This document shows, piece by piece, positions 3,787 through 39,156 of a DNA stretch of 40,524 nucleotides; position 1 is the stretch's first letter, and each line of letters opens with the position of its first letter. The position numbers were made by a program, and so were the translations under genes. Below the pieces are notes generated by a model. It ran no database searches. It was not told where the DNA came from and worked only from the letters and a program-made list of their open reading frames with translations. Source of the DNA: a virus (taxonomy: Duplodnaviria; Heunggongvirae; Uroviricota; Caudoviricetes); IMG/VR virus record IMGVR_UViG_2627853794_000002, positions 1-40,524 of that record. The stretch is one strand, 5' to 3'.

Positions 3787-4210
3787 GCCATTCAATATCT
3801 GGCGCACTGGAGGTATCAACCAGCTCCAGTGCATCCAGATAATCCAGCCACAAATTATATTGCGCCAGTTCCTCACCTTTCAGACGACCAATAGCGGCTT
3901 TACCGGGCCATTGCTTACTGTTCATGTATTCGTTGGCCTGGTTAATTAGTAGCTGTCTTTCTGATTCAGTAATTTCAATAAGCTCTTCATGCGTGGGTGG
4001 AGGAATATCTGCCCACGCAGGCAGCCCATCATCTCCGGCAATACGGATTTTTCCTTGTGGCGGTTCAGCCATAAACTCACTGATAATATTTTGATTTACT
4101 TCCTTAGCGTCTGATAAATCCCATCCCTCTGATTTATATTTATCAATCATATCCACAGGGAAAAAAGCATTATGCCTTGCGCTATAAACATATTCGTTCA
4201 TATAAATCAC
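3758..4210 (-). CDS. Tail fibre assembly protein (expressed-orientation copy, Tfa family)
   Basis: 150 aa; ...APDIEWPTPPAVQAR; immediately downstream of tail fibre gene. Confidence 0.75.
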   Translation of the reverse strand: MIYMNEYVYSARHNAFFPVDMIDKYKSEGWDLSDAKEVNQNIISEFMAEPPQGKIRIAGDDGLPAWADIPPPTHEELIEITESERQLLINQANEYMNSKQWPGKAAIGRLKGEELAQYNLWLDYLDALELVDTSSAPDIEWPTPPAVQAR

Positions 4211-4221
4211 CCTGAATAAAA

Positions 4222-4884
4222 TTACTCACCAACAGCCCACCAACTGTAATTCATCGATACCGTGTCGCTGGTTGATGACGTTCTGTAAGCAGAATTAAAG
4301 CCGGTTAACGTTGGGCCTTCTGCAGTCATCACGAACCCTCGCCCAGCGCCTAAAGGCGCACCGCCATCACCAGAATGAGTAAGCATGGCGCAGTCCGCTT
4401 TTTTGGGGAAAGGGATGCTGAATGTAATTCTCATTGTTTGCGTCGATAATGTCGGCGTAACCGCACCACGACCATATTGCAGGATTTTCCCGTTGGGTAA
4501 TTTCATCCACCCATCACCACTGGCAAAAGAGGCCATGTCCGGTATCTGATTTTCCCCTGTCCCCACATCCCGTTTTGCCGCTTCTCCCAAACCAAGGTTT
4601 TCGAGAGCCGTTTTCACCGTGCCATCCGATTTGATATCGCCAAACGGATTCTTGCGGCTTAACAGCAGCGCACGAAGCGCGGTAAGCAGCTGGTCGTGCC
4701 GCGCCTTCTCAAGACTGGCACCGGATGCCTCAACAACGCTACAAAGTTCTTCCTGCAACATGTCAAAGTAGTCATCATCCAGATCGGTGGCAGGCGTGCC
4801 AGTCTGGGGGTTACCACGGGTAAAACCGTTTTTACCCGCGCCGAACTTATCCTTCTGCGCGGTTTTCGTGTCTATACGATGCAT
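4222..4884 (-). CDS. Tail fibre protein (constant N-terminus outside, variable C-terminus inside the invertible segment)
   Basis: 220 aa; crossover site falls at codons 98-104 (GLGEAAK); followed by Tfa gene. Confidence 0.75.
4573..4593. repeat. Invertase crossover site, right copy (inside tail fibre CDS)
   Basis: ttttgccgcttctcccaaacc = reverse complement of left copy with one mismatch. Confidence 0.6.
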
Positions 4885-5472: not shown

Positions 5473-6521
5473 GAAATCGTCCCCAGTACCGCCAGTTCGT
5501 TTTTCGCAATGGAGATATTGTCCACCGGTGCAAGCAACTGATGGCTGTATTCCCCGTTCGCACCGGAAATCGCCTCACTGATACGCGATACCTTCAGTTC
5601 TCCCTGCGGATAACCATCACGCAGCAGGAACGAACGCAACTCCGCGGTAATGGCAGCCCGTATTTCCGGTGTGTCCGGCGTCACGCGGATATGAAAATCC
5701 ACCGTATGTGCCACCGGCCTGAATACATACAAATCAGAGCCTGCCACCGGGGCCAGTGGCCCGATATGTTGTCTTGCTGCCGTTTCCGTTGATTCTTCCG
5801 GAATGGGATTAATCAGGTCACTGCTGGCAATCATCACACCGACAGTTCCCGTTCCCATCCAGTGACGGTATGTCCATGCGCGGGTAATGCCGGGCACTTC
5901 TTTAGCCCAGACGACATAGTCCCCGTCAGCCCCGCCCTGAGGCGTCCAGTAATACCGCTCAATGACGCGGGCGCGCCACGTTTCCAGCTCTTCAGTATCA
6001 AATCCACCTGTCAGGGTATCTGCCACGCCGGAAGACGGCAGACCATTAACCGGCGTGACCAGGATTAATGACGTACCGTCGTCAGCGTTACCGACCGCGC
6101 CTGCACTTGAGCAGGCGATCGGCACGCGCAGGACACCACCGGAGCTGGTTGCATCGGCAGTTGCCGTGTACTGAACCAGGTCATCGCGCTGAATAACACT
6201 CCCGGCGGTCACCTTCAGGCCATCGCTGACACCTTCCCAGCGCATATACCCGCTGGCAGCCGTGGCCCCCTTGCGCGGACACCGTTTCATCGCAGCATGT
6301 CGCGCCAGCCAGGACGCATCGCACAGGTCAGGCAGCATGTTCATTGCCAGATAATCGATGTACCCGTAAACCGTATGCAGCGCCGCCGCATACACCTTTG
6401 CCCGCACGTCTTCATCCATGCGCCGGAGCGTGTCGCTGACGTCCAGCCTGGCGAATAAATCGTTACGGAGCATACTGATATTTTCTGCCAGCGTCGGGCG
6501 CTGAAATTCACTGTCCGCCAT
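5463..6521 (-). CDS. Baseplate J-like protein (Mu gp47-like)
   Basis: 352 aa; synteny within Mu-like baseplate module. Confidence 0.65.
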
Positions 6522-6936
6522 GCGTTATCGCACTCCACAGATCATCAAAAGAAATCATTACCGGTCCGTCACGACGCCAGAGGGTGATACTGTTACCCAG
6601 TTCATTAATCCCGGTGCGGCGGATATCCAGATCAATACGGGACACCACGCCGTCATCAATCATCCATTGCAGGCATTCGCGGATATACCCCCTTACCGTC
6701 TGCACCAGCTGATTGGTCAATTTGCTGCGCTGAAGCAGCCACAGTCGGGAGCCGTAACGGTCATTCTGTACCGCAGGCCAGGTATCCCCCCACCATCCCA
6801 TCGGGACGTCGGCGTTGTCATCAGGCTCCGCCCGCCGCCAGGTAAACAGGGAAATCACCACAGCGCGGGTCAGCGGATCCAGCGGTGCGCTGGCGCAGGT
6901 GCGTTTACCGTTCACCGTCAGCCACAGTTCCATCAT
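6508..6936 (-). CDS. Baseplate protein (Mu gp46-like)
   Basis: 142 aa; overlapping coupled ORF in baseplate operon. Confidence 0.5.
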   Translation of the reverse strand: MMELWLTVNGKRTCASAPLDPLTRAVVISLFTWRRAEPDDNADVPMGWWGDTWPAVQNDRYGSRLWLLQRSKLTNQLVQTVRGYIRECLQWMIDDGVVSRIDLDIRRTGINELGNSITLWRRDGPVMISFDDLWSAITHGGQ

Positions 6937-7481: not shown

Positions 7482-8560
7482 CAGAACGGGTCCTCCTGTA
7501 CTCTGGCCTTTTTCTTTTTCCGCGCGCCGGGGGCTTCGGGTTCAGGCAGATAAGCATCAGGTGGGCCGACACGGATTTCCGTCAGGGTGCCGTTCTGGTC
7601 CTGAGTAAACGTGACTTCCGAGACAAGCAGTTCGGTATTGTCGAAACCACAGACCGGATCGAAGACAATCACCCGCTGGTTGGGCTGCCACAGCGTACCG
7701 TTACCCTGTCGCCAGCCCTGCACCACATAGGTGGTTTCATCCGTCCGCGCCGCCCGTTGTCGGGCTTCAAAGTCAGCACGCGCAATACAGCCTGCCCCCG
7801 TAGCCTGCCCTGTCTGCCTGATATACATCGGACGGTAACGGGCAATAAATGCGTCCTCTGTGCGGGCCCGCAGCGCGGTGGTGGTGGCCTCACCGAAATC
7901 ATCGTCGTTTCCGGCACGCTGCCCCGCCACCTGGTAAACTGAAAACCGCTCCCGGATACTCTTCTCCGTATCGCAGGAAAGGATGTTTTCCCCGAGTACC
8001 AGCGCGGTATGTGCCCGCGTTGAGCCAATACCGCCAATCACCAGCCTGCCGTGCGGGTCGTCGTAAGCCAGCGCCTGCTGCTGACCGAGTATTTTGTTGA
8101 TCACCTCGATCACCGTTTCACCGTGATCAGGCTGGACATCAGGAATAACACCCGACGGCGCACCACTGTTCACCACCTCAATGCCGAAAGGCGCAGCAAG
8201 CGCCTGCGCAATCTGTACCAGCGATCGTCCGTTAAACTGTGTCGGTTCGGCTGCACAGTCAATCAGGTCAGCGGTCAGACTACGTCCGGCAATACCGGTG
8301 CTGACCGAACGGGCATCGTAACGAACGGGCGTCGCCTCCACCCAGCCGGTGATCACCAGCTCATCACCAATCAGCACCTCCACTTTTGAACCGTTTTTAA
8401 TGCGCGGCTGAAGCGTGGTGATACCCTCATCACCCGGCCACTGGCGGGTGATCTCCACACTGAAATCCCGCGCCAGCCGTTCAATACCGGCACCGATGCG
8501 CACCGATGTCCAGCCATTCCACTCCCGGCCATTTACCCGTAGCGTGACATTGTCGTTCAT
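7481..8560 (-). CDS. Baseplate hub protein (Mu P / gp44-like)
   Basis: 359 aa; synteny after DNA circulation-like gene. Confidence 0.55.
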   Translation of the reverse strand: MNDNVTLRVNGREWNGWTSVRIGAGIERLARDFSVEITRQWPGDEGITTLQPRIKNGSKVEVLIGDELVITGWVEATPVRYDARSVSTGIAGRSLTADLIDCAAEPTQFNGRSLVQIAQALAAPFGIEVVNSGAPSGVIPDVQPDHGETVIEVINKILGQQQALAYDDPHGRLVIGGIGSTRAHTALVLGENILSCDTEKSIRERFSVYQVAGQRAGNDDDFGEATTTALRARTEDAFIARYRPMYIRQTGQATGAGCIARADFEARQRAARTDETTYVVQGWRQGNGTLWQPNQRVIVFDPVCGFDNTELLVSEVTFTQDQNGTLTEIRVGPPDAYLPEPEAPGARKKKKARVQEDPF

Positions 8561-24167: not shown

Positions 24168-24242
<75 letters not shown>

Positions 24243-24245
24243 ATA

Positions 24246-24321
<76 letters not shown>

Positions 24322-24323
24322 AC

Positions 24324-24400
24324 TGGACCGCCACCGGGGACTCGAACCTCGCACACTCAACTTAAAGGGTTGACGCTCTTTCCTGATGAGCTAGTGGCGG
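24324..24400 (-). tRNA. Atypical tRNA, anticodon UUU (Lys?) with C33
   Basis: 77 nt; perfect 7-bp acceptor stem CCGCCAC/GTGGCGG, anticodon stem TCAAC/GTTGA, loop CCUUUAA, T-loop TTCGAGT with one A-C mismatch in T stem; CCA encoded. Confidence 0.55.
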
Positions 24401-24401
24401 C

Positions 24402-24477
24402 TGGTGGCCCTTGCTGGATTTGAACCAGCGACCTGGCGATTATGAGTCGCTCGCTCTCACCACTGAGCTAAAGGGCC
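24402..24477 (-). tRNA. tRNA with anticodon CAU, most similar to tRNA-Ile2 (ileX/ileY-like) rather than elongator Met
   Basis: 76 nt; loop CUCAUAA; acceptor GGCCCTT/AAGGGCC; CCA encoded. Confidence 0.75.
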
Positions 24478-26144: not shown

Positions 26145-26307
26145 GATTCCTCCTTGCTGCCAGTCGCAACCATTTTTTATCAACCAGGCTGGCGGTATAT
26201 CCGAGCAGAGTTGGTATTTCGGATGGCTTCAGCTCAGGTTTACGCTTACGACGATTTGGTACTTTGTAGATGTGTCCGTTCATGACACGAATAAGCGGTG
26301 TAGCCAT
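26137..26307 (-). CDS. ninE: NinE-like protein
   Basis: 56-aa [30 protein letters not shown]... not in ORF track; overlaps ninB stop (TAATG) and ybcO start. Confidence 0.6.
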   Translation of the reverse strand: MATPLIRVMNGHIYKVPNRRKRKPELKPSEIPTLLGYTASLVDKKWLRLAARRNHG

Positions 26308-26762
26308 TACGCCTCCTGCTTGTCGCGCAGCAGCTGGAACTCGCAGCTCTGCGGAATAGTCAGGTGGCAGCCAATATTCATCGCCCAGGCTTCAACCTTA
26401 CACAGGAAGACATACATCTCTCCGGTATCAAGATCGGAGGTATGGCGTAACGACTGGATAGTAGTGATTTCGCCGGTTACGACATCAACCAGGTCCTTGG
26501 TTTCATAACCGAGGTATGTGTGTTTGAGAGCATCTTTTACCCATGCTGCGGTAGCGAACGATTTCCCCCTGCTGATGAGGTATTCACTGATTTCGCTGTA
26601 CCACATGTGGCTGAGTGCATTCTGGGAAAGACTGCGTCTCTCTCGCCACGGTTTAAGCACCATGCGAAAGCATTTGCCTTCCTCCAGATAAGGCTGGATC
26701 TGCTGGCCGATAGCGGTGAAGTTACCACGATGCAATTTGATGCCATCTTGTAGGAGGTTCAC
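26307..26762 (-). CDS. ninB: NinB recombination protein (YbcN-like)
   Basis: 151 aa; nin-region synteny ninB-ninE-ybcO-rusA. Confidence 0.7.
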
Positions 26763-26953
26763 GATTCACCTCCGCAGAGGTCAAACGCTGGATGCAAAAA
26801 ATCGCAGGTACATTTCTGCATCTGTGAAGGGAGAAGAGAGTTTGGATTGTATGTGCGCATAAACGTCCCCGTTTAGCGCAGAAGTCACCGGAGTTGTTCA
26901 GGCTCCGGTGACTTAATTATGACAAGTTGATTATGGAAAATCAAAGCTTGTCA

Positions 26954-27499
26954 TCAGAACAACGAATAATTTAAAAACTCTATAATTTCTAAGATTTTTT
27001 CACTTATCGCTGGAATGAAACGTAAAGCAAAATAGAGCCCCAAAAAACCCAATATTGAGTACGAAACCGTGATAGCGACTCTGTATTTTTTCTCGCCTCG
27101 TTTCACTCTCTCCCACTCAGTTTTAAGAACACTGGAACTATATTCAAAATACTGTCTGACCACATCTGTAATGTTAGATGAGCGATCCATTTTTAAAATG
27201 TAATCCTCAATGATTTTCAAAAGCTGAGACTCTTCATTAGTTAAGTTTTTACTGGATAACCTAAGCTTCACTTTTGCGGAAAGAAAATAAATTTTTCCAG
27301 CTACCTCAGGGAGCTTCTCAGGCGGAGTCGTGCGTAATTGTAAAAAGTTCTCCATCAATTCAGCTAACTCTTCCCTTAAACCATCTATCCACGCTTGCCG
27401 AAACTCAGATGTTTTATTCTCCTTAGTGATAACAAGCCCCACTCCAGCTGCAGCTGCGGCAATAATTGCGGCGACAACTGAGGCTATCCCTGCATCCAT
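26954..27499 (-). CDS. Hypothetical membrane protein (N- and C-terminal predicted TM helices)
   Basis: 181 aa; MDAGIASVVAAIIAAAAAGVGLVI... and ...VSYSILGFLGLYFALRFI; AT-rich. Confidence 0.5.
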   Translation of the reverse strand: MDAGIASVVAAIIAAAAAGVGLVITKENKTSEFRQAWIDGLREELAELMENFLQLRTTPPEKLPEVAGKIYFLSAKVKLRLSSKNLTNEESQLLKIIEDYILKMDRSSNITDVVRQYFEYSSSVLKTEWERVKRGEKKYRVAITVSYSILGFLGLYFALRFIPAISEKILEIIEFLNYSLF

Positions 27500-27638
27500 G
27501 AATTACCCCTCAAAACAATATGAATATGAATATGATTCGATGCCTTCAGCAATTGAAAACTAAAACTCCCTGTAATGTCACATCTACCCATGAATGTGTT
27601 TTCTTCATACAGCTTTGCTGCAATATCTAAATCAGACA

Positions 27639-27965
27639 TTAGTCAGCGGTTCTCCCGCGCCAGCGTTTGTTACTTTCTGATATTCTTTCTGTATCAACGG
27701 ACTCAACCTCACCTTCTGAAAACCTAACTGCATTAGCTTTAGCCATTGCCTTCCTAGCATCTTCTTCCGCCTGGCTAAAATGCACCTTCTTTCTTCCCTT
27801 GAAACTACCAACGCGAATTTTGGAAGAGGCCTGCGTCTTGTACTTGCTAATCCGTAATTGTGCCGCCAAATGGGCTTTTGCCTCGGTGCGGTTCGCTGGC
27901 TTCTTCTTTACTAATTCAAGGTCTAAATGGTACTGCTGCTCAGCTCTTAGTTTCTTCGGTTTCAT
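27639..27965 (-). CDS. Hypothetical basic protein
   Basis: 108 aa from ATG 27965 (MKPKKLRAEQQYHLDLELVKKK...); AT-rich; upstream of membrane protein gene. Confidence 0.45.
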   Translation of the reverse strand: MKPKKLRAEQQYHLDLELVKKKPANRTEAKAHLAAQLRISKYKTQASSKIRVGSFKGRKKVHFSQAEEDARKAMAKANAVRFSEGEVESVDTERISESNKRWRGRTAD

Positions 27966-28290
27966 AATATCACTCTCAAACAAAGTCCATTTATCATAGA
28001 ATAAAAGCCCTCTAAGAGCTTTGATTTGTATCTATGCTAATTCCCGTCAATTTGTTCTTCATTTTACCTCCAGCTGTTGTGCTGCTGCAGTGGCATTCAA
28101 TAGTTTTCCTTCTAAGCATCCTACAAAATCGGTGACGAGTCATGACCAGTTCACGTAGTGCAATGAAATTACTGCAATCTATTATGACGCAAATGCGTCA
28201 ATACTCGAATCAACTGATCATCCTGCCACGACTGAAATCTCAAATAGGCCGTTTCTCAAGTAAGAGATTTTGAATGCATTATTGGCTACT

Positions 28291-28319
28291 GAAATAAAAA
28301 ACCCAGCGCCAACTGGGTT
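28291..28319 (-). terminator. Intrinsic terminator after exported-protein moron
   Basis: Minus strand stem aacccag/ctgggtt followed by TTTTTATTT, 18 nt after stop codon. Confidence 0.55.
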
Positions 28320-28336
28320 CATATGAAATTTTTTTG

Positions 28337-28831
28337 TCATTTCCAATTGCAAGACTGTGAAATTTTTTCCACAACCTTATCAATCTCAGACAAGTCAAAC
28401 TCAACTACTTGCATAGTTGATCCATAAGGTTCAAACCCAAAAATAGCTTTTTTATGCTTAGCCAAGGTCTTTATAAATTGTATTGGTTGTGGAGCAAATG
28501 CAGAATCACCGCCTTCCCCACCTCCCCAAACACTCTTGACCGGCTTTCCGCCATCTAACCGCACTGTAATTCTTGGGTTGTCCGACCCCATATAATCATT
28601 GAATGATAAATAGGCATCTGTTTTGTTATCACTACAACGCAACACCAGTGAAGTTGCACGATCAGTACCTGCTTTGTTATATGAATCTGGTGATAAATTA
28701 AGAGCCACAAAGTCAGTCTGGTCAGTCATTTTATTTATCTCAGACTTTGTTATCCACGGCCCTAACTTCTCTACACCAGCATTTGCTGTAAACGAGGCAC
28801 TTATGACAAAGGCTAAAATAAATTTTCTCAT
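28337..28831 (-). CDS. Exported (signal-peptide) hypothetical protein
   Basis: 164 aa; N-terminal MRKFILAFVISASFTANA signal peptide; AT-rich; own terminator. Confidence 0.55.
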   Translation of the reverse strand: MRKFILAFVISASFTANAGVEKLGPWITKSEINKMTDQTDFVALNLSPDSYNKAGTDRATSLVLRCSDNKTDAYLSFNDYMGSDNPRITVRLDGGKPVKSVWGGGEGGDSAFAPQPIQFIKTLAKHKKAIFGFEPYGSTMQVVEFDLSEIDKVVEKISQSCNWK

Positions 28832-28977
28832 AACCCTATCTCCTTGGATTTAAAGAACTAAATATTATCAAGTCTCTTGCCACTAGAAAACCCACTTTAT
28901 TTCCAAACTCTGACGGCATTCCTGAAAATCCGCTTCATACTCACTTGCCCCGCCCTATCATCCTGAGTAGCTAACCG

Positions 28978-29151
28978 TTAAACAAACGTTCGCCAGACCT
29001 TACCATCAATGACCAGGATTCCTGCCCGCGCCATTTTTGCCGCAGCCTGATTTATGCTGGTTAATGTCATACCTGTTGTCGCAGCAACGTCCGGCGCACA
29101 GAAGCTCTTGTGCGTCTCCAGATAATGAATAATTGCCTCTTTGCCCGTCAT
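28978..29151 (-). CDS. ren: Ren-like protein, C-terminally truncated
   Basis: 57-aa ORF MTGKEAIIHYLETHKSFCAPDVAATTGMTLTSINQAAAKMARAGILVIDGKVWRTFV, resembles N-terminal ~55 aa of lambda Ren (96 aa) as recalled; ATGA overlap with P stop. Confidence 0.5.
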   Translation of the reverse strand: MTGKEAIIHYLETHKSFCAPDVAATTGMTLTSINQAAAKMARAGILVIDGKVWRTFV

Positions 29152-31769: not shown

Positions 31770-32462
31770 ATGAAAAAAGAAACTCTTGCTGATCGCTTAA
31801 ACCTAGCGATGGAACAATCTGGAATGTCTCAAGGCGCTCTTGCAAAGGCGTCTGGCGTAGCTCAACCCACAATCTGGAGACTGACAAGCGGCAACGCGCG
31901 CGGCTCAACAAAAATTGTTGAAATAGCTAATGCATTGGGTGTTCGAACAGAATGGCTCTCATCAGGCATAGGCCCGATGAGAAATGACGGTCAACAATCA
32001 GGGAAGCCTGCTGTCAGCCATTCAAAATACTTCAAGATTGACGTTCTTGATATAGAAGTCAGTGCCGGACCGGGTGTCATCAACCGTGAGTTTGTGGAAG
32101 TTCTACGCTCGGTTGAGTACTCGTTTGACGATGCTCGTCACATGTTCGATGGCAGGAAGGCGGAAAATATCCGCATCATTAACGTGCGCGGTGACAGCAT
32201 GTCAGGAACGATCGAACCAGGTGATCTGCTGTTCGTTGATATCACTGTTAAATCTTTCGACGGTGATGGTATCTATGCGTTTCTGTACGACGACACAGCC
32301 CATGTAAAGCGTCTGCAAATGATGAAGGATAAGCTGCTGGTTATCTCTGATAACAAGAGCTACTCACCGTGGGACCCGATCGAGAAAGACGAGATGAACC
32401 GGGTGTTCATCTTCGGTAAGGTTATTGGGAGCATGCCGCAGACTTACCGAAAGCATGGTTAA
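31770..32462 (+). CDS. cI: CI-like prophage repressor (HTH plus S24 LexA-like autopeptidase domain)
   Basis: 230 aa from ATG 31770; N-terminal HTH (SQGALAKASGVAQPTIWRL), C-terminal ...VRGDSMSGTIEPGDLLFVD... and K in ...HVKRLQ. Confidence 0.85.
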   Translation: MKKETLADRLNLAMEQSGMSQGALAKASGVAQPTIWRLTSGNARGSTKIVEIANALGVRTEWLSSGIGPMRNDGQQSGKPAVSHSKYFKIDVLDIEVSAGPGVINREFVEVLRSVEYSFDDARHMFDGRKAENIRIINVRGDSMSGTIEPGDLLFVDITVKSFDGDGIYAFLYDDTAHVKRLQMMKDKLLVISDNKSYSPWDPIEKDEMNRVFIFGKVIGSMPQTYRKHG

Positions 32463-32693
32463 ACGACCTGCATTGCGGGTCACACCGCATATTTATAGCC
32501 AAAGCATACCTAGCAATGGACTGAATGCAGCTTACAAGATATCATTGTTTTTCAAAGAAAAGGGAACAATACCCTTTTGAAAAGCAGCAATCATTGTCAA
32601 CGGCACTAATAGTACGCAATGAGCAAAACTTAGCTGTTTAATAAGCATGCAAATAATGAAGGTATCATCATATTAACAATGTGTTGGTGAAGC

Positions 32694-33017
32694 ATGAACG
32701 ACAATAACAAGAATACTCGATCGCCAGAAGAGCATGAAGCTGTAGAAAAAGCGTTATCTGTTACACGAGCAGATATCGCGGAGTATTTTACTTCATTCGA
32801 AAAGCAGCATGGCGATATGTTGTGTCCGCTATGCAAAACATCTCTTTGGGCCATCACGCCTAGAATTGATAGTGATGAGCATGCAGCTATTATCACTTTA
32901 CCATTGCCTAATGCATCTGGCAGGGGGGTTTGGGCATATCCTATTATATGCTCTGGATGTGGCTATATAATTCATCTTTCTGCAAGTTTTGTCGTAGGCA
33001 AAATCAAAGGAGAATGA
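32694..33017 (+). CDS. Hypothetical protein A with CxxC...CxxC zinc-ribbon-like motif
   Basis: 107 aa; C44PLC47 and C86SGC89; RBS ggtga; AT-rich; stop overlaps next start (ATGA). Confidence 0.6.
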   Translation: MNDNNKNTRSPEEHEAVEKALSVTRADIAEYFTSFEKQHGDMLCPLCKTSLWAITPRIDSDEHAAIITLPLPNASGRGVWAYPIICSGCGYIIHLSASFVVGKIKGE

Positions 33018-33472
33018 AAGTGGCTACTGTTGCAATAGATGGTTATTCATTCATCACGGTTTCCGATAGTTGCATCTCTGACACAGCGCTTCCACCTATT
33101 GAAAATACTTATGGTGACAATATATACATACCCAAAATCGTTGAAACCATAGGTCCGGTTTATCGCCAAAAAGACTTAGATCACAGATACATACTTTACG
33201 CAGTGGCTGTATCATTAGTGCTCACTTTAAGTGTTGTTGTATGGTCTATAGGAGGTAGGTTTATGGTCTACATTCCATTATACGTTGCACTTGCACCTAT
33301 CGTTTATTGGTTACTGAAGATTTCCTATGCTTACTGCCTCGTAAAATGTGCTGGCTCCAGTCTCCTAGATGACTTTGATTCTCACCATATTGAGAACAAC
33401 AGGTTTGTAAAGCGTATTAATAGTATTTCATTCAGAGTAGTTGCTATAACAAAAAAACTTTTCTGGAGATAA
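33014..33472 (+). CDS. Hypothetical small membrane protein B (2 predicted TM helices)
   Basis: 152 aa from ATG 33014 with aaggag RBS; hydrophobic segments YILYAVAVSLVLTLSVVVWSIGG and FMVYIPLYVALAPIVYWLL. Confidence 0.6.
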   Translation: MKVATVAIDGYSFITVSDSCISDTALPPIENTYGDNIYIPKIVETIGPVYRQKDLDHRYILYAVAVSLVLTLSVVVWSIGGRFMVYIPLYVALAPIVYWLLKISYAYCLVKCAGSSLLDDFDSHHIENNRFVKRINSISFRVVAITKKLFWR

Positions 33473-33473
33473 G

Positions 33474-33896
33474 ATGGCAGAAGGGCGTCTAAAAACCGCG
33501 GGTAAAAACAGCCTGCCTTTTGCCATTACCAGTGTTCTTTGTGGTTACATTAACCACATGGTTCCTGAAATTTTTCCGGAAGGGGAAATGCGCCAATGGG
33601 CATATAGCACGATCCCAATGCTATCGCTGGTTTTACTGTACATTATTAGGACAATTAAAGATTTTGGAACTATGAGTCTGGCTCGTCTGGCTATTACTAT
33701 ATGTGCTACCCCAGAGAAAAAGCGCCTCAAACTCATAATGTCTGATAAGCATGTCAGTGAGGAAACAAAAGCTATAGCCGAGGCTCGTTATAATCAAATT
33801 ATTCAAAAAGAATTAGAAATAGGCTCCAATGCGGTTGATTATGTAGTAGGTATGCCAATTGTACATAATCAACCCAGACCAACAATTGATGAATAA
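33474..33896 (+). CDS. Hypothetical small membrane protein C (1-2 predicted TM helices)
   Basis: 140 aa; ggag RBS; start 2 nt after B stop; hydrophobic segment TIPMLSLVLLYIIRTI. Confidence 0.6.
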   Translation: MAEGRLKTAGKNSLPFAITSVLCGYINHMVPEIFPEGEMRQWAYSTIPMLSLVLLYIIRTIKDFGTMSLARLAITICATPEKKRLKLIMSDKHVSEETKAIAEARYNQIIQKELEIGSNAVDYVVGMPIVHNQPRPTIDE

Positions 33897-33906
33897 TTCG
33901 TAAAAA

Positions 33907-33934
33907 ACCCGGCCACCGTGCCGGGTTTTCTTTT
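33907..33934 (+). terminator. Intrinsic terminator closing the cI-A-B-C transcript (tIMM-like)
   Basis: Stem acccggc/gccgggt, 6-nt loop, then TTTTCTTTTG. Confidence 0.65.
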
Positions 33935-34057
33935 GCCTCCCCTCATCACACAAACCGTTCAAAAAACCACCACACCTCACTTCAGTTATCGCTATGCGAT
34001 GCAAGTCACAAAATTAATTCTTTTTGCTATCAAACATTTAATATCAAAACACATCAA

Positions 34058-34102
34058 CCAATAGCAATAAGTATTGATATCACCAATAGCAATAGCTATT
34101 AT
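34058..34102 (+). promoter_or_regulatory. Candidate pL promoter with oL operator repeats
   Basis: Two copies of ACCAATAGCAATA (34058, 34082) sharing CAATAGCAA with the cro-cI intergenic repeats; TTGATA - 17 nt - TATTAT at 34074-34102. Confidence 0.5.
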
Positions 34103-34175
34103 CACCATATCGCAACAACACAACGATACGGCAACCACCTGATTCACCGTTGCGATGACCGCTTAGATCCGCAGT

Positions 34176-34586
34176 TTGAATTTCAGCAGGCTTCGGGGAG
34201 TGCGAGGGGTGAAACGGACGCGTGAACGTCGGTGTGACCAGCTGAAATCAACACAACACTTTATACCTCAGTCGCTTCAACGAGGCGGCTTAGTTATGAC
34301 AACCGGCGGCCATCCACCGCCTGAATACGCGCAGAAGTCTCTATATGTTCAGCAGCCCAGCTTACGGGCAGGAGTTTTTATGGTTCATCAACATTACGGA
34401 ACGCAGACCGTTAATCGAGGTGCGGTCATGCCAGGAATGCTGGTCAAACACAAAGATGGTACCTGGACTGCATCAGCTAATTTACGCGGACGGCTTTATC
34501 TGCATCGCGGCATCGAGCGCACTTATACCCGTGATTTGCTCGTGGAAGTTTTTCTCGACGGACGCGGTAACGGCCTGAATCGCTAA
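34176..34586 (+). CDS. First gene of leftward early operon; possible N-like antiterminator or Kil-like protein, start uncertain
   Basis: ORF track start is TTG 34176; Arg-rich stretch [15 protein letters not shown] near N-terminus; first ATG with RBS at 34296 gives 96 aa; ends just before gam. Confidence 0.4.
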
Positions 34587-34661
34587 TCCCCTTTCCTGTT
34601 TTCCTAATCAGCCTGGCATTTCGCGGGCGATATTTTCACAGCCATTTTCAGGAGTTCAGCC

Positions 34662-37704: not shown

Positions 37705-38026
37705 GGCCTGTCAGTTTCTCAAGATATCCAGACCTACCGCTACCAACTGGATACGAACAGGCCGCCTACAGGCAACACGCAAAGACCCCACTAAACCAAA
37801 ATCTCCTTACCTCACAACGCGACAAGCCTGCATTGCGGCGCTTCAGTCTCCGCTGCATACTATCAAGGTGAGCGCGGGTGATGGCATAACAGAGGAAAGA
37901 AAATGTCACTCTTCCGCAGAAGTGAAATATGGTACGCCAGTTTCACATTGCCGAACGGTAAAAGATTTAAACAGTCTCTTGGAACAAAGGACAAAAGGCA
38001 GGCGACAGAGCTCCATGACAAGCTAA
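37676..38026 (+). CDS. xis: Excisionase-like HTH protein (AlpA/Xis family); 3' end overlaps int
   Basis: [33 protein letters not shown]... HTH; ORF runs 124 nt into int in another frame, true C-terminus uncertain. Confidence 0.5.
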
Positions 38027-39066
38027 AGGCTGAAGCATGGCGGGTCAGCAAACTTGGTGAAATACCTGATATGACGTTTGAGGAAGCGTGTGTCAGGTGG
38101 CTCGAAGAGAAAGCACATAAGAAATCACTGGACGATGACAAAAGCCGGATCGGATTCTGGCTTCAACATTTCGCAGGGATGCAACTAAGAGACATCACTG
38201 AATCAAAAATTTATTCAGCGATGCAGAAAATGACAAACCGGCGTCATGAGGAAAACTGGAAACTCAGGGCAGAAGCATGCAGAAAAAAAGGGAAACCTGT
38301 TCCAGAATACACGCCAAAACCAGCGTCCGTTGCAACGAAGGCTACGCATCTTTCATTTATAAAGGCCCTGCTAAGAGCCGCAGAGCGTGAATGGAAAATG
38401 CTGGATAAGGCACCAATTATTAAAGTGCCTCAACCAAAGAATAAACGGATCCGCTGGCTGGAGCCCCATGAAGCACAAAGGCTGATTGATGAATGTCCGG
38501 AGCCATTAAAGTCTGTTGTTGAATTTGCACTGGCAACAGGCTTAAGACGCTCGAACATCATCAACCTTGAATGGCAACAAATAGATATGCAGCGCCGGGT
38601 GGCATGGATAAACCCGGAAGAGAGTAAATCAAACCGCGCAATTGGCGTTGCGCTGAATGATACTGCATGTCGCGTATTGAAAAAACAAATCGGGAATCAT
38701 CACCGTTGGGTATTTGTGTACAAGGAAAGCTGTACCAAACCAGACGGAACGAAAGCGCCAACAGTAAGGAAGATGCGGTATGACGCAAACACAGCCTGGA
38801 AAGCGGCGCTGAGACGGGCTGGTATTGATGATTTCAGATTTCACGACTTGAGACACACCTGGGCAAGTTGGCTGGTTCAAGCCGGAGTCCCGTTGTCAGT
38901 GTTACAGGAAATGGGGGGTTGGGAGTCTATCGAAATGGTTCGTCGATATGCTCACCTTGCACCTAATCACCTTACCGAACACGCACGGCAAATAGACTCG
39001 ATCCTGAATCCATCGGTCCCAAATTTGTCCCAGTCAAAAAATAAGGAAGGTACTAATGATGTGTAA
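37903..39066 (+). CDS. int: Tyrosine integrase (lambdoid prophage integrase)
   Basis: 387 aa; N-terminal [14 protein letters not shown]...; catalytic region ...[39 protein letters not shown]; stop 14 nt from tRNA 3' end. Confidence 0.9.
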
Positions 39067-39080
39067 CTTATTGATTTAAA

Positions 39081-39156
39081 TGGTGCCGATAATAGGAGTC
39101 GAACCTACGACCTTCGCATTACGAATGCGCTGCTCTACCAACTGAGCTATATCGGC
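39081..39156 (-). tRNA. thrW: tRNA-Thr (anticodon CGU), intact; prophage attachment site
   Basis: 76 nt; minus strand GCCGATATAGCTCAGTTGGTAGAGCAGCGCATTCGTAATGCGAAGGTCGTAGGTTCGACTCCTATTATCGGCACCA; adjacent to proA as in E. coli. Confidence 0.9.

Follow-up and report, generated by a model that had tools for sequence, protein, structure and literature searches.

The ren gene of phage lambda encodes the protein that allows escape from Rex exclusion. A moron is an independent transcription unit that has been added to a phage genome, with its own promoter and terminator and a deviant G+C content (Juhala et al. 2000, in PMC3594210). In phage HK97, such a moron lies between the tail chaperone and the tape measure genes, and its product, the inner-membrane protein gp15 of 62 amino acids (aa), has a proven exclusion activity (Cumby et al. 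2012, in PMC3594210). The DNA described here is a stretch of 40,524 nucleotides (nt) (IMG/VR record IMGVR_UViG_2627853794_000002; hereafter the window), which contains a complete lambdoid prophage of the lambda-like type found in Escherichia coli. Between the ren and ninB genes, in the early-right operon on the minus strand, this prophage carries an AT-rich block (26950-28883) with genes for a 164-aa, a 108-aa and a 181-aa protein. The block is ordinary lambdoid cargo at the usual cargo spot, a patchwork of three unrelated accessory genes.

The module boundaries were established by pairwise comparison with lambda and three further prophages or phages. Strain GB089 and the phage IdasGreatGrand share the sequence of the window from P up to and including the 164-aa gene with its terminator (module A). 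The shared homology ends at 28187 in GB089 and at 28259 in IdasGreatGrand, and in place of the part containing the 108-aa and 181-aa genes (module B, comprising B1 and B2) the two carry different DNA, 699 bp and 2.7 kb long, respectively. Lambda has neither module. Of 5426 complete E. coli genomes, 83 have the cassette with the 164-aa gene, called VasI-like below after its family match, and only 14 have the 108-aa and 181-aa genes beside it. Elsewhere, prophages have the 108-aa gene but not the 181-aa gene, the former being usually coupled to a gene resembling that of the DNA polymerase III theta subunit, and modules B1 and B2 are each found singly in other prophages. These observations show the ren-ninB interval to be a mosaic of at least three modules with separate acquisitions; B2 replaced the rest of the theta-like gene. 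The initial annotation of this DNA had read the block as a single insertion, which is at odds with both the unequal distribution of the modules and their occurrence alone.

The layout of the block does give some impression of one unit. The three genes lie side by side in one orientation and are tightly packed: the 108-aa gene overlaps with its stop codon the next ATG, that of a 51-codon open reading frame (ORF), which in turn overlaps the start of the 181-aa gene. The whole block is AT-rich, and the full arrangement recurs as a 2.5-kb region at an identity of at least 99% in 14 complete E. coli genomes. However, the tight packing is a by-product of the truncated theta-like gene, the first gene is set apart by a terminator, the modules are separated by gene debris, and each gene is found without the others in other phages. 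The block represents a clean worked example of lambdoid mosaicism, in which cargo has been replaced in a nested fashion at a conserved linker.

The ren gene of this prophage (28884..29151, minus strand) is a decayed pseudogene that arose through a nonsense change and a frameshift. As in lambda, it overlaps the end of P, and its first 165 nt (55 codons) are 87% identical to lambda ren, the next 104 nt being 62% identical. The ORF itself (29151-28978) has 57 codons and matches the Ren-like family phrog_142 (3e-20). It is terminated by a TAC to TAA change at codon 58, and a -1 frameshift follows near 28920. The Ren homology runs for about 95 nt beyond the stop, to about 28884, and reaches approximately residue 88 of the 96 residues of lambda Ren, so that no intact frame of about 96 codons is left. 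In frame 0 the translation reads KVWRTFV, the stop codon and then RLATQDDRAGQVSMKRIF; after the -1 shift it reads FQECRQSLEIKWVF up to a stop, the lambda counterpart being KVWRTVYYRFATREEREGKMSTNLVFKECRQSAAMKRVL. As Ren-like sequence persists past the stop in two frames, ren was inactivated by point changes. PGAP labels the gene 'protein ren, frameshifted; internal stop'. The foreign DNA begins at about 28883 and replaces only the last eight or so codons of ren and the region of lambda tR2. Two earlier statements are thereby corrected, namely that ren ends after codon 57 where the block begins and that the insertion truncated it. A lysogen of this phage would be without any Ren function.

The low G+C content noted in the initial annotation is borne out by a windowed analysis. 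The G+C content of the block is 0.397 against 0.505 for the window, the third lowest value among 386 sliding windows of equal size. By module, it is 0.388 in A, 0.428 in B1 and 0.393 in B2, and 0.49-0.51 in the flanks. The G+C content at third codon positions of the three block genes is 0.33-0.47, compared to 0.52-0.62 for P, O, ninB and rusA. The description of the block as accessory cargo in the variable ren-nin interval, that is, as horizontally acquired DNA, is supported, and the coordinates first given for the ren-like, 164-aa, 108-aa, 51-codon and 181-aa ORFs are all correct on the minus strand. The ratio of nonsynonymous to synonymous substitution rates is 0.06-0.11 for the 164-aa, 108-aa and 181-aa genes when compared with homologues of 60-85% identity. 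All three are under purifying selection and are therefore real genes.

Module A (minus strand, approximately 28883-28187, as delimited by the comparisons with GB089, IdasGreatGrand and lambda) has a textbook moron architecture: it is present in some related phages and absent from others, it deviates in base composition and it has its own terminator. A predicted extended -10 element, TGATAATAT (28862..28870), is located 39 nt upstream of the ATG and is followed by a strong ribosome-binding site, AAGGAGATAGGG (28845-28834), by the gene for the 164-aa protein (28337..28831), and by an intrinsic terminator (28299..28320) with a 9-bp stem and a T-run (-12.2 kcal/mol, z = -2.6). Among 34 distinct upstream regions of homologues, 24 have the motif TGnTAnnnT, usually TGnTAGGAT, at a distance of about 40 nt from the ATG. 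The homologous genes carry a conserved GGGATAGGGAT-type ribosome-binding site across phage contexts, and in nearly all of 13 sampled contexts a terminator lies directly 3' of the stop codon. On the basis of the predicted promoter motif, module A is the only part of the block that may be expressed in the lysogen.

The 164-aa protein starts with a classic Sec signal peptide, MRKFILAFVISASFTANA followed by G, with a predicted cleavage after A18, and is probably exported; the initial annotation had recognized both this signal and the terminator. Residues C66 and C161 are invariant across 25 relatives. The protein matches the Pfam family VasI (PF11319) with 26.7 bits at a cut-off of 26.5, and the match is confined to profile positions 78-184, the C-terminal two-thirds. 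All 25 relatives match PF11319, the best E-value being 4e-9. With the NCBIfam equivalog TIGR03360, the protein scores 14.4 bits, far short of the cut-off of 124.2. A structural model, of moderate confidence (predicted local distance difference test, pLDDT, 78.7), has a beta fold like that of Bartonella IalB (PDB 3dtd) with a sequence identity of 9%; a search of PDB sequences with a profile gave no hit.

All examined contexts of the 164-aa gene are phage contexts. In E. coli, the gene is located in the ren-nin interval, nearly always beside the ren pseudogene, and in Klebsiella and Pantoea prophages homologues of 55-60% identity have the tail chaperone gene on one side and the tape-measure gene on the other. 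Viral contigs give 109 hits for the VasI-like protein. The gene was never seen in a type VI secretion system (T6SS) cluster among the contexts examined. PGAP and RefSeq name the protein 'TagO', a label that is overstated because this context is missing and the TIGR03360 cut-off is not reached; the RefSeq wording 'TagO / type VI secretion' is misleading for this prophage protein.

Two side observations concern this cassette. The cluster of proteins at 90% identity that contains the product of 28337-28831 also holds 233-aa replication proteins P, one of them as the representative. This is evidently a clustering artefact, which may explain the few hits in the first homologue search for the 164-aa protein. 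In some strains, namely H36/H61 (NZ_CP084055.1), H45 and H52, IS1 or IS3 elements have entered this cargo interval, either inside the VasI-like cassette or adjacent to it. The region tolerates disruption.

Modules A and B meet at 28187/28186, where the homology to GB089 stops. The palindrome TGACGCATTTGCGTCA (28200-28185) spans this point and was considered as an operator; it is a product of the recombination junction. Next to it lies non-coding debris (28170..28257, minus strand), the 3' remnant of an antirepressor-like gene, with 77% identity between 28257-28170 and positions 6781-6868 of IdasGreatGrand (L003:6781-6868), where the intact gene has Bro-N and P22_AR_C domains. Module B1 (28089-27602, minus strand) matches the nin region of Citrobacter, Enterobacter and Klebsiella lambdoid prophages at 83% and has its source in the nin region of a different lambdoid lineage. 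The module contains a hairpin (28022-28004) and, downstream of it, the gene for the 108-aa protein (27639..27965). This basic protein belongs to phrog_14068 (3.5e-64), a family that is functionally uncharacterised; no relation was found in Pfam, the PDB or PADLOC. In the family alignment, the C-terminus (...NKRWRGRTAD) is invariant and an N-terminal helix-like segment is conserved. The family is confined to nin regions of Enterobacteriaceae prophages and is common in lambdoids of Citrobacter, Enterobacter and Klebsiella.

In Citrobacter, Enterobacter and Klebsiella prophages (L027-L032, approximately 4001-4584), the 108-aa gene is followed by a gene for an 85-aa protein resembling Pol III theta and Hot, and the stop and start codons of the two overlap. 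This regular coupling hints at a replication-related pairing, which is broken in this window. The homology to L027-L031 ends at 27602, 37 nt into the 51-codon ORF (27484..27639, minus strand), which PGAP does not annotate. The start of this ORF, MSDLDIAAKLYEE, resembles the start of the theta-like gene, MSDWNIAAKPQED, over about 12 codons (MSDLDIAAK... and MSDWNIAAK...). The ORF thus shares with P1 Hot and Pol III theta (PF06440) the N-terminal pattern MSD.(D/N)IAAK and the normal position over the 108-aa stop codon, but only these dozen or so codons remain of a domain of approximately 75-85 aa. The rest of the sequence is unrelated; the whole ORF has no homologue in any of the loci and no Pfam hit. 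The possible gene of the initial annotation is, most likely, a leftover chimera rather than a gene.

Module B2 (27509-26950, minus strand) starts where the homology to the Enterobacter copy starts, ten bases before the ATG of the gene for the 181-aa protein (26954..27499). The two terminal hydrophobic helices that had been read from the sequence are seen in the topology analysis and in the AlphaFold2 model, which is confident (pLDDT 90). The first transmembrane helix (TM1, residues ~4-25) is continuous with helix 1 of a bundle of four, and the second (TM2, ~141-165) with helix 4. Across 55 family sequences, the mean number of lysine and arginine residues is 0.04 ahead of TM1, 4.1 within the 20 residues that follow it and 6.0 within the 21 residues that lead up to TM2. 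With this charge distribution, the bundle should be cytoplasmic and both termini should be outside. The invariant residues are K26, K29, S31-Q35, W37 and R42 after TM1, L79/R80, and W129, V132, K133, G135 and E136 before TM2; the central part of the protein is poorly conserved. According to the order of the helices in the model, rather than its coordinates, the invariant residues would be at the membrane-proximal end of the bundle.

The 181-aa family is large. At 50% identity, its clusters number about 4800 for E <= 1e-3 and 755 for E <= 1e-30, and a word-indexed search gave 336 hits. It is spread over Proteobacteria, Acidobacteria, Nitrospira, Verrucomicrobia and Bacteroidota. None of the models of Pfam, NCBIfam, PHROG or PADLOC matched it (55 members were scanned with Pfam and PHROG). 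A Bestrophin-like (DUF4239) identity was rejected, as the weak hits fell on inconsistent regions, and the search for fused domains in longer members yielded only collagen-like or low-complexity extensions. The gene is present in 14 of the 5426 complete E. coli genomes. It is solitary with changing neighbours in nin regions of Klebsiella, Enterobacter and Citrobacter prophages, and it adjoins the integrase gene in prophages of Limnobaculum, Rhodoferax and Pantoea. The family has 124 hits in viral contigs; on long contigs, 13 of 47 (28%) lie within 3 kb of an end compared to 13% expected. Theta-like genes (21 of 84 loci), NinG, integrase and Q are the commonest neighbours in viral loci. No conserved partner gene emerged, the viral neighbours reflecting shared location only and the bacterial ones being heterogeneous (the 145 neighbours from 80 bacterial genomes belong to 98 Pfam families, and no family occurs more than three times). 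A terminator lies within 100 nt of 22 of 73 (30%) distinct family members as compared to 7% of controls; in the window, the 181-aa gene is followed by strong hairpins that have no T-run. When the 108-aa and 181-aa proteins were compared by tblastn with 50,697 deposited phage genomes, no match was found, and searches of the PDB with the sequences and profiles of the block proteins gave nothing significant.

The homology to phages that are devoid of module B resumes at 26949, four bases past the stop codon of the 181-aa gene. The backbone therefore does not resume at ninB, as was first thought, but with a conserved linker (26860..26954, minus strand) and a 33-aa ORF (26860-26759), which we take to be similar to ylcH of the DLP12 prophage. 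The linker, which folds into two strong hairpins (z = -5.8), contains the first of these (26954-26919), a promoter-like sequence TTGATT-17-CATAAT (26944-26916) and the second, 11-bp hairpin, GTCACCGGAG...CTCCGGTGAC (26912-26884). Both E. coli and Enterobacter prophages have it in conserved form upstream of their ylcH-like ORF; one copy lies at L020, approximately 5550-5640. In IdasGreatGrand it is present twice (L003, approximately 5714-5851 and 7688-8037), flanking the cargo of that phage. The linker has the appearance of a recombination joint or of an element regulating the nin operon, and it is plausible that it serves homologous recombination in the exchange of cargo.

The function of the block genes is a matter of guesswork. 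The favoured explanation combines the mosaic anatomy with an action at the cell envelope, either in lysogenic conversion or in superinfection exclusion, and a probability of about 0.5 can be given to it. In this scheme, the VasI-like protein would be made in the lysogen from its own predicted promoter and exported to the periplasm, where it would most likely be an envelope-level lysogenic-conversion factor. It would most plausibly interfere with a machine that crosses the envelope, such as the tail or DNA conduit of an incoming phage, or an attack through a T6SS. The 108-aa and 181-aa genes, which have no detectable promoter of their own, would most likely be transcribed with the N-antiterminated early operon. 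The stronger candidate for abortive infection or superinfection exclusion at the level of the membrane would be the 181-aa protein, and the 108-aa protein might be an early accessory protein, possibly one that binds nucleic acids.

Several observations weigh against this explanation. Neither homology nor an experiment was found that links one of the three proteins with exclusion, defence or another function. The best E-values in PADLOC-DB v2.0 are 0.013-0.029 and belong to unrelated models. The relationship of the 164-aa protein to VasI is marginal, its score lying just at the Pfam cut-off. A generic -35/-10 promoter scan did not flag the extended -10 element of module A, and the literature yielded no expression data for this module, the promoter being a conserved motif only. 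Promoter-like sites are not enriched upstream of the 181-aa family (10% compared to 7% of controls), and its expression in the lysogen is therefore doubtful. The 181-aa family is also not strictly a phage family, since its neighbours in 80 diverse bacterial genomes are mostly non-phage genes. It bears no relation to P22 SieA (hhalign probability 0.2), and a Foldseek search of viral structures with the 181-aa model gave no hit at E <= 1e-3. In related phages, the slot is occupied by an antirepressor-like gene and by unknowns, with no known defence genes among them. An assignment by location, according to which the slot holds defence genes, was rejected for the same reason. The homology and structure searches that the initial annotation had named as a check were fruitful in part: scans of six ORFs with Pfam, NCBIfam, PADLOC and PHROG models gave only the marginal VasI match, Ren and uncharacterised PHROGs, structure comparison added the IalB-like fold, and there was no functional hit otherwise.

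A bolder form of the favoured explanation can be imagined. The members of the 181-aa family would be single-gene, membrane-anchored effectors of phages and other mobile elements, which block or abort infection by competitors through the invariant, membrane-proximal site on the cytoplasmic side, TKENKTSEFRQxWI / LKxEWxRVKxGE, and, in parallel, the periplasmic phage protein with the VasI/IalB fold would shield lysogens from phage tails or the T6SS. We consider this improbable. If it were true, the phage VasI-like protein would provide the first functional handle on the VasI family, and if either candidate were an exclusion or defence factor, it would represent a new single-gene mechanism. The 181-aa family, as a very large family with two transmembrane helices for which Pfam, PHROG, NCBIfam and PADLOC have no model, is a candidate worth testing.

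Two other readings are serious rivals of the envelope explanation. According to the first, the 108-aa and 181-aa genes are delayed-early accessory genes of the lytic cycle, with a role in host takeover, counter-defence or the timing of lysis, and are idle in the lysogen. The window scan found no promoter-like site upstream of either gene, nor are such sites enriched across the 181-aa family. The 108-aa gene is a regular constituent of nin regions, where it is translationally coupled to the theta-like, replication-accessory gene, and in viral contigs the 181-aa gene has theta-like genes, NinG and Q as its most frequent neighbours. However, the terminators of 30% of the 181-aa family, the location of many members by integrases at prophage ends, and the occurrence of the gene as an orphan in non-phage chromosomal contexts across phyla speak against a lytic-cycle role, which we regard as possible though doubtful.

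The second reading assigns the cargo to host fitness or virulence. The protein with the IalB/VasI fold would act on the envelope or on contact with host cells, as do lambda Bor and Lom and DLP12 YbcL, and the membrane protein would have a stress- or envelope-related role. The periplasmic YbcL is presumably encoded in the same ren-ybcN interval of the DLP12 prophage. The fold matches that of the Bartonella 'invasion-associated protein B', and the architecture of the cassette fits expression in the lysogen. The block-carrying strains come from many hosts and environments, and the moron literature contains many fitness factors (PMC3594210). The likeness to IalB is, however, at the level of the fold only (9% identity), the mechanism of IalB is itself unknown, and the list of strains, which includes wastewater, frog, crayfish, poultry and human isolates, reveals no link to a pathotype. 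A role in fitness or virulence is unlikely. Finally, the proposal that the three genes form one functional unit, a multi-gene defence or exclusion system that was inserted once and destroyed ren, is largely refuted by the distribution data (83 compared to 14 genomes), finds no PADLOC hit and disagrees with the loss of ren through point changes, and we consider it very improbable.

The surroundings of the block are those of a lambda-like early-right operon. On the minus strand, O (30865-29846) and P (29849-29148) precede the ren-like ORF. Beyond the block, the backbone (26307..26860) consists of the ylcH-like ORF and ninB/ybcN (26762-26307) and continues with ninE, ybcO, rusA, ylcG and Q. Four tRNA genes (24168-24477, minus strand), for Gly-TCC, Thr-TGT, Lys-TTT and Met-CAT, lie directly downstream of Q (25361-24672), which is the position of the tRNA cluster in lambdoid phages of the Stx type. 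An Rfam scan of the window detected only tRNAs. The integrase ORF (37903-39066, plus strand) abuts tRNA-Thr(CGT) (39081-39156), likely the attachment site and the end of the prophage. There are two more stretches of low G+C content (0.39-0.41), at 1-2500 and at approximately 32200-34600. The latter adjoins the gene of a cI-like S24 repressor, in the position of lambda rexAB. It contains the ORFs 32930-33472, 33474-33896 and 34176-34586, which have no significant match in Pfam or PADLOC and are unexplored cargo candidates; the sole PADLOC listing is a weak match of ORF 33474-33896 to Cas3d (E 0.0023).

Among the known exclusion proteins, P22 SieA, lambda and P22 SieB, and T4 Imm resemble the 181-aa protein in that all are small inner-membrane proteins (predicted for the 181-aa protein) encoded by stand-alone prophage genes at cargo sites. 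The 181-aa protein differs from them in the absence of homology, the scan of 55 members having given no hit to Pfam SieB or to any other Pfam or PHROG family, and in its architecture of TM1, a probably cytoplasmic four-helix bundle and TM2. The same layout, with the bundle between two transmembrane helices, is found in the sensor modules of histidine kinases and chemoreceptors (QseE, NarQ, TorS and Tar). The identity is 5-13%, and helical bundles of a generic kind match easily. Sensors have a periplasmic bundle and a cytoplasmic output domain, whereas the 181-aa protein has no output domain and its bundle would have the opposite orientation.

The VasI/TagO proteins (PF11319, TIGR03360, V. cholerae VCA0118) and the 164-aa protein are similar in size, in the presence of a signal peptide and in the C-terminal two-thirds of the Pfam model. 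The 164-aa protein differs by a score far below the TIGR03360 cut-off and by its phage contexts, the only ones among those examined. A search of the literature on VasI/TagO function, phage-borne VasI, defence hotspots in nin regions and the RefSeq accessions returned nothing relevant and no published function for VasI, and the name therefore carries no mechanism. The closest parallel to module A as a genetic element is the gp15 moron of HK97. The two products have no kinship in sequence or fold, that of module A being a 164-aa, soluble, beta-rich protein with a predicted Sec-dependent export, and exclusion has been proven for gp15 only. Both modules nevertheless have the anatomy of a moron, both products are envelope-bound, in the case of module A by prediction, and the Klebsiella and Pantoea homologues of the 164-aa gene occupy the very position of gp15. 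The cassette for the exported protein is self-contained, has reached two distinct moron sites among the phages of enterobacteria, and is a testable candidate.

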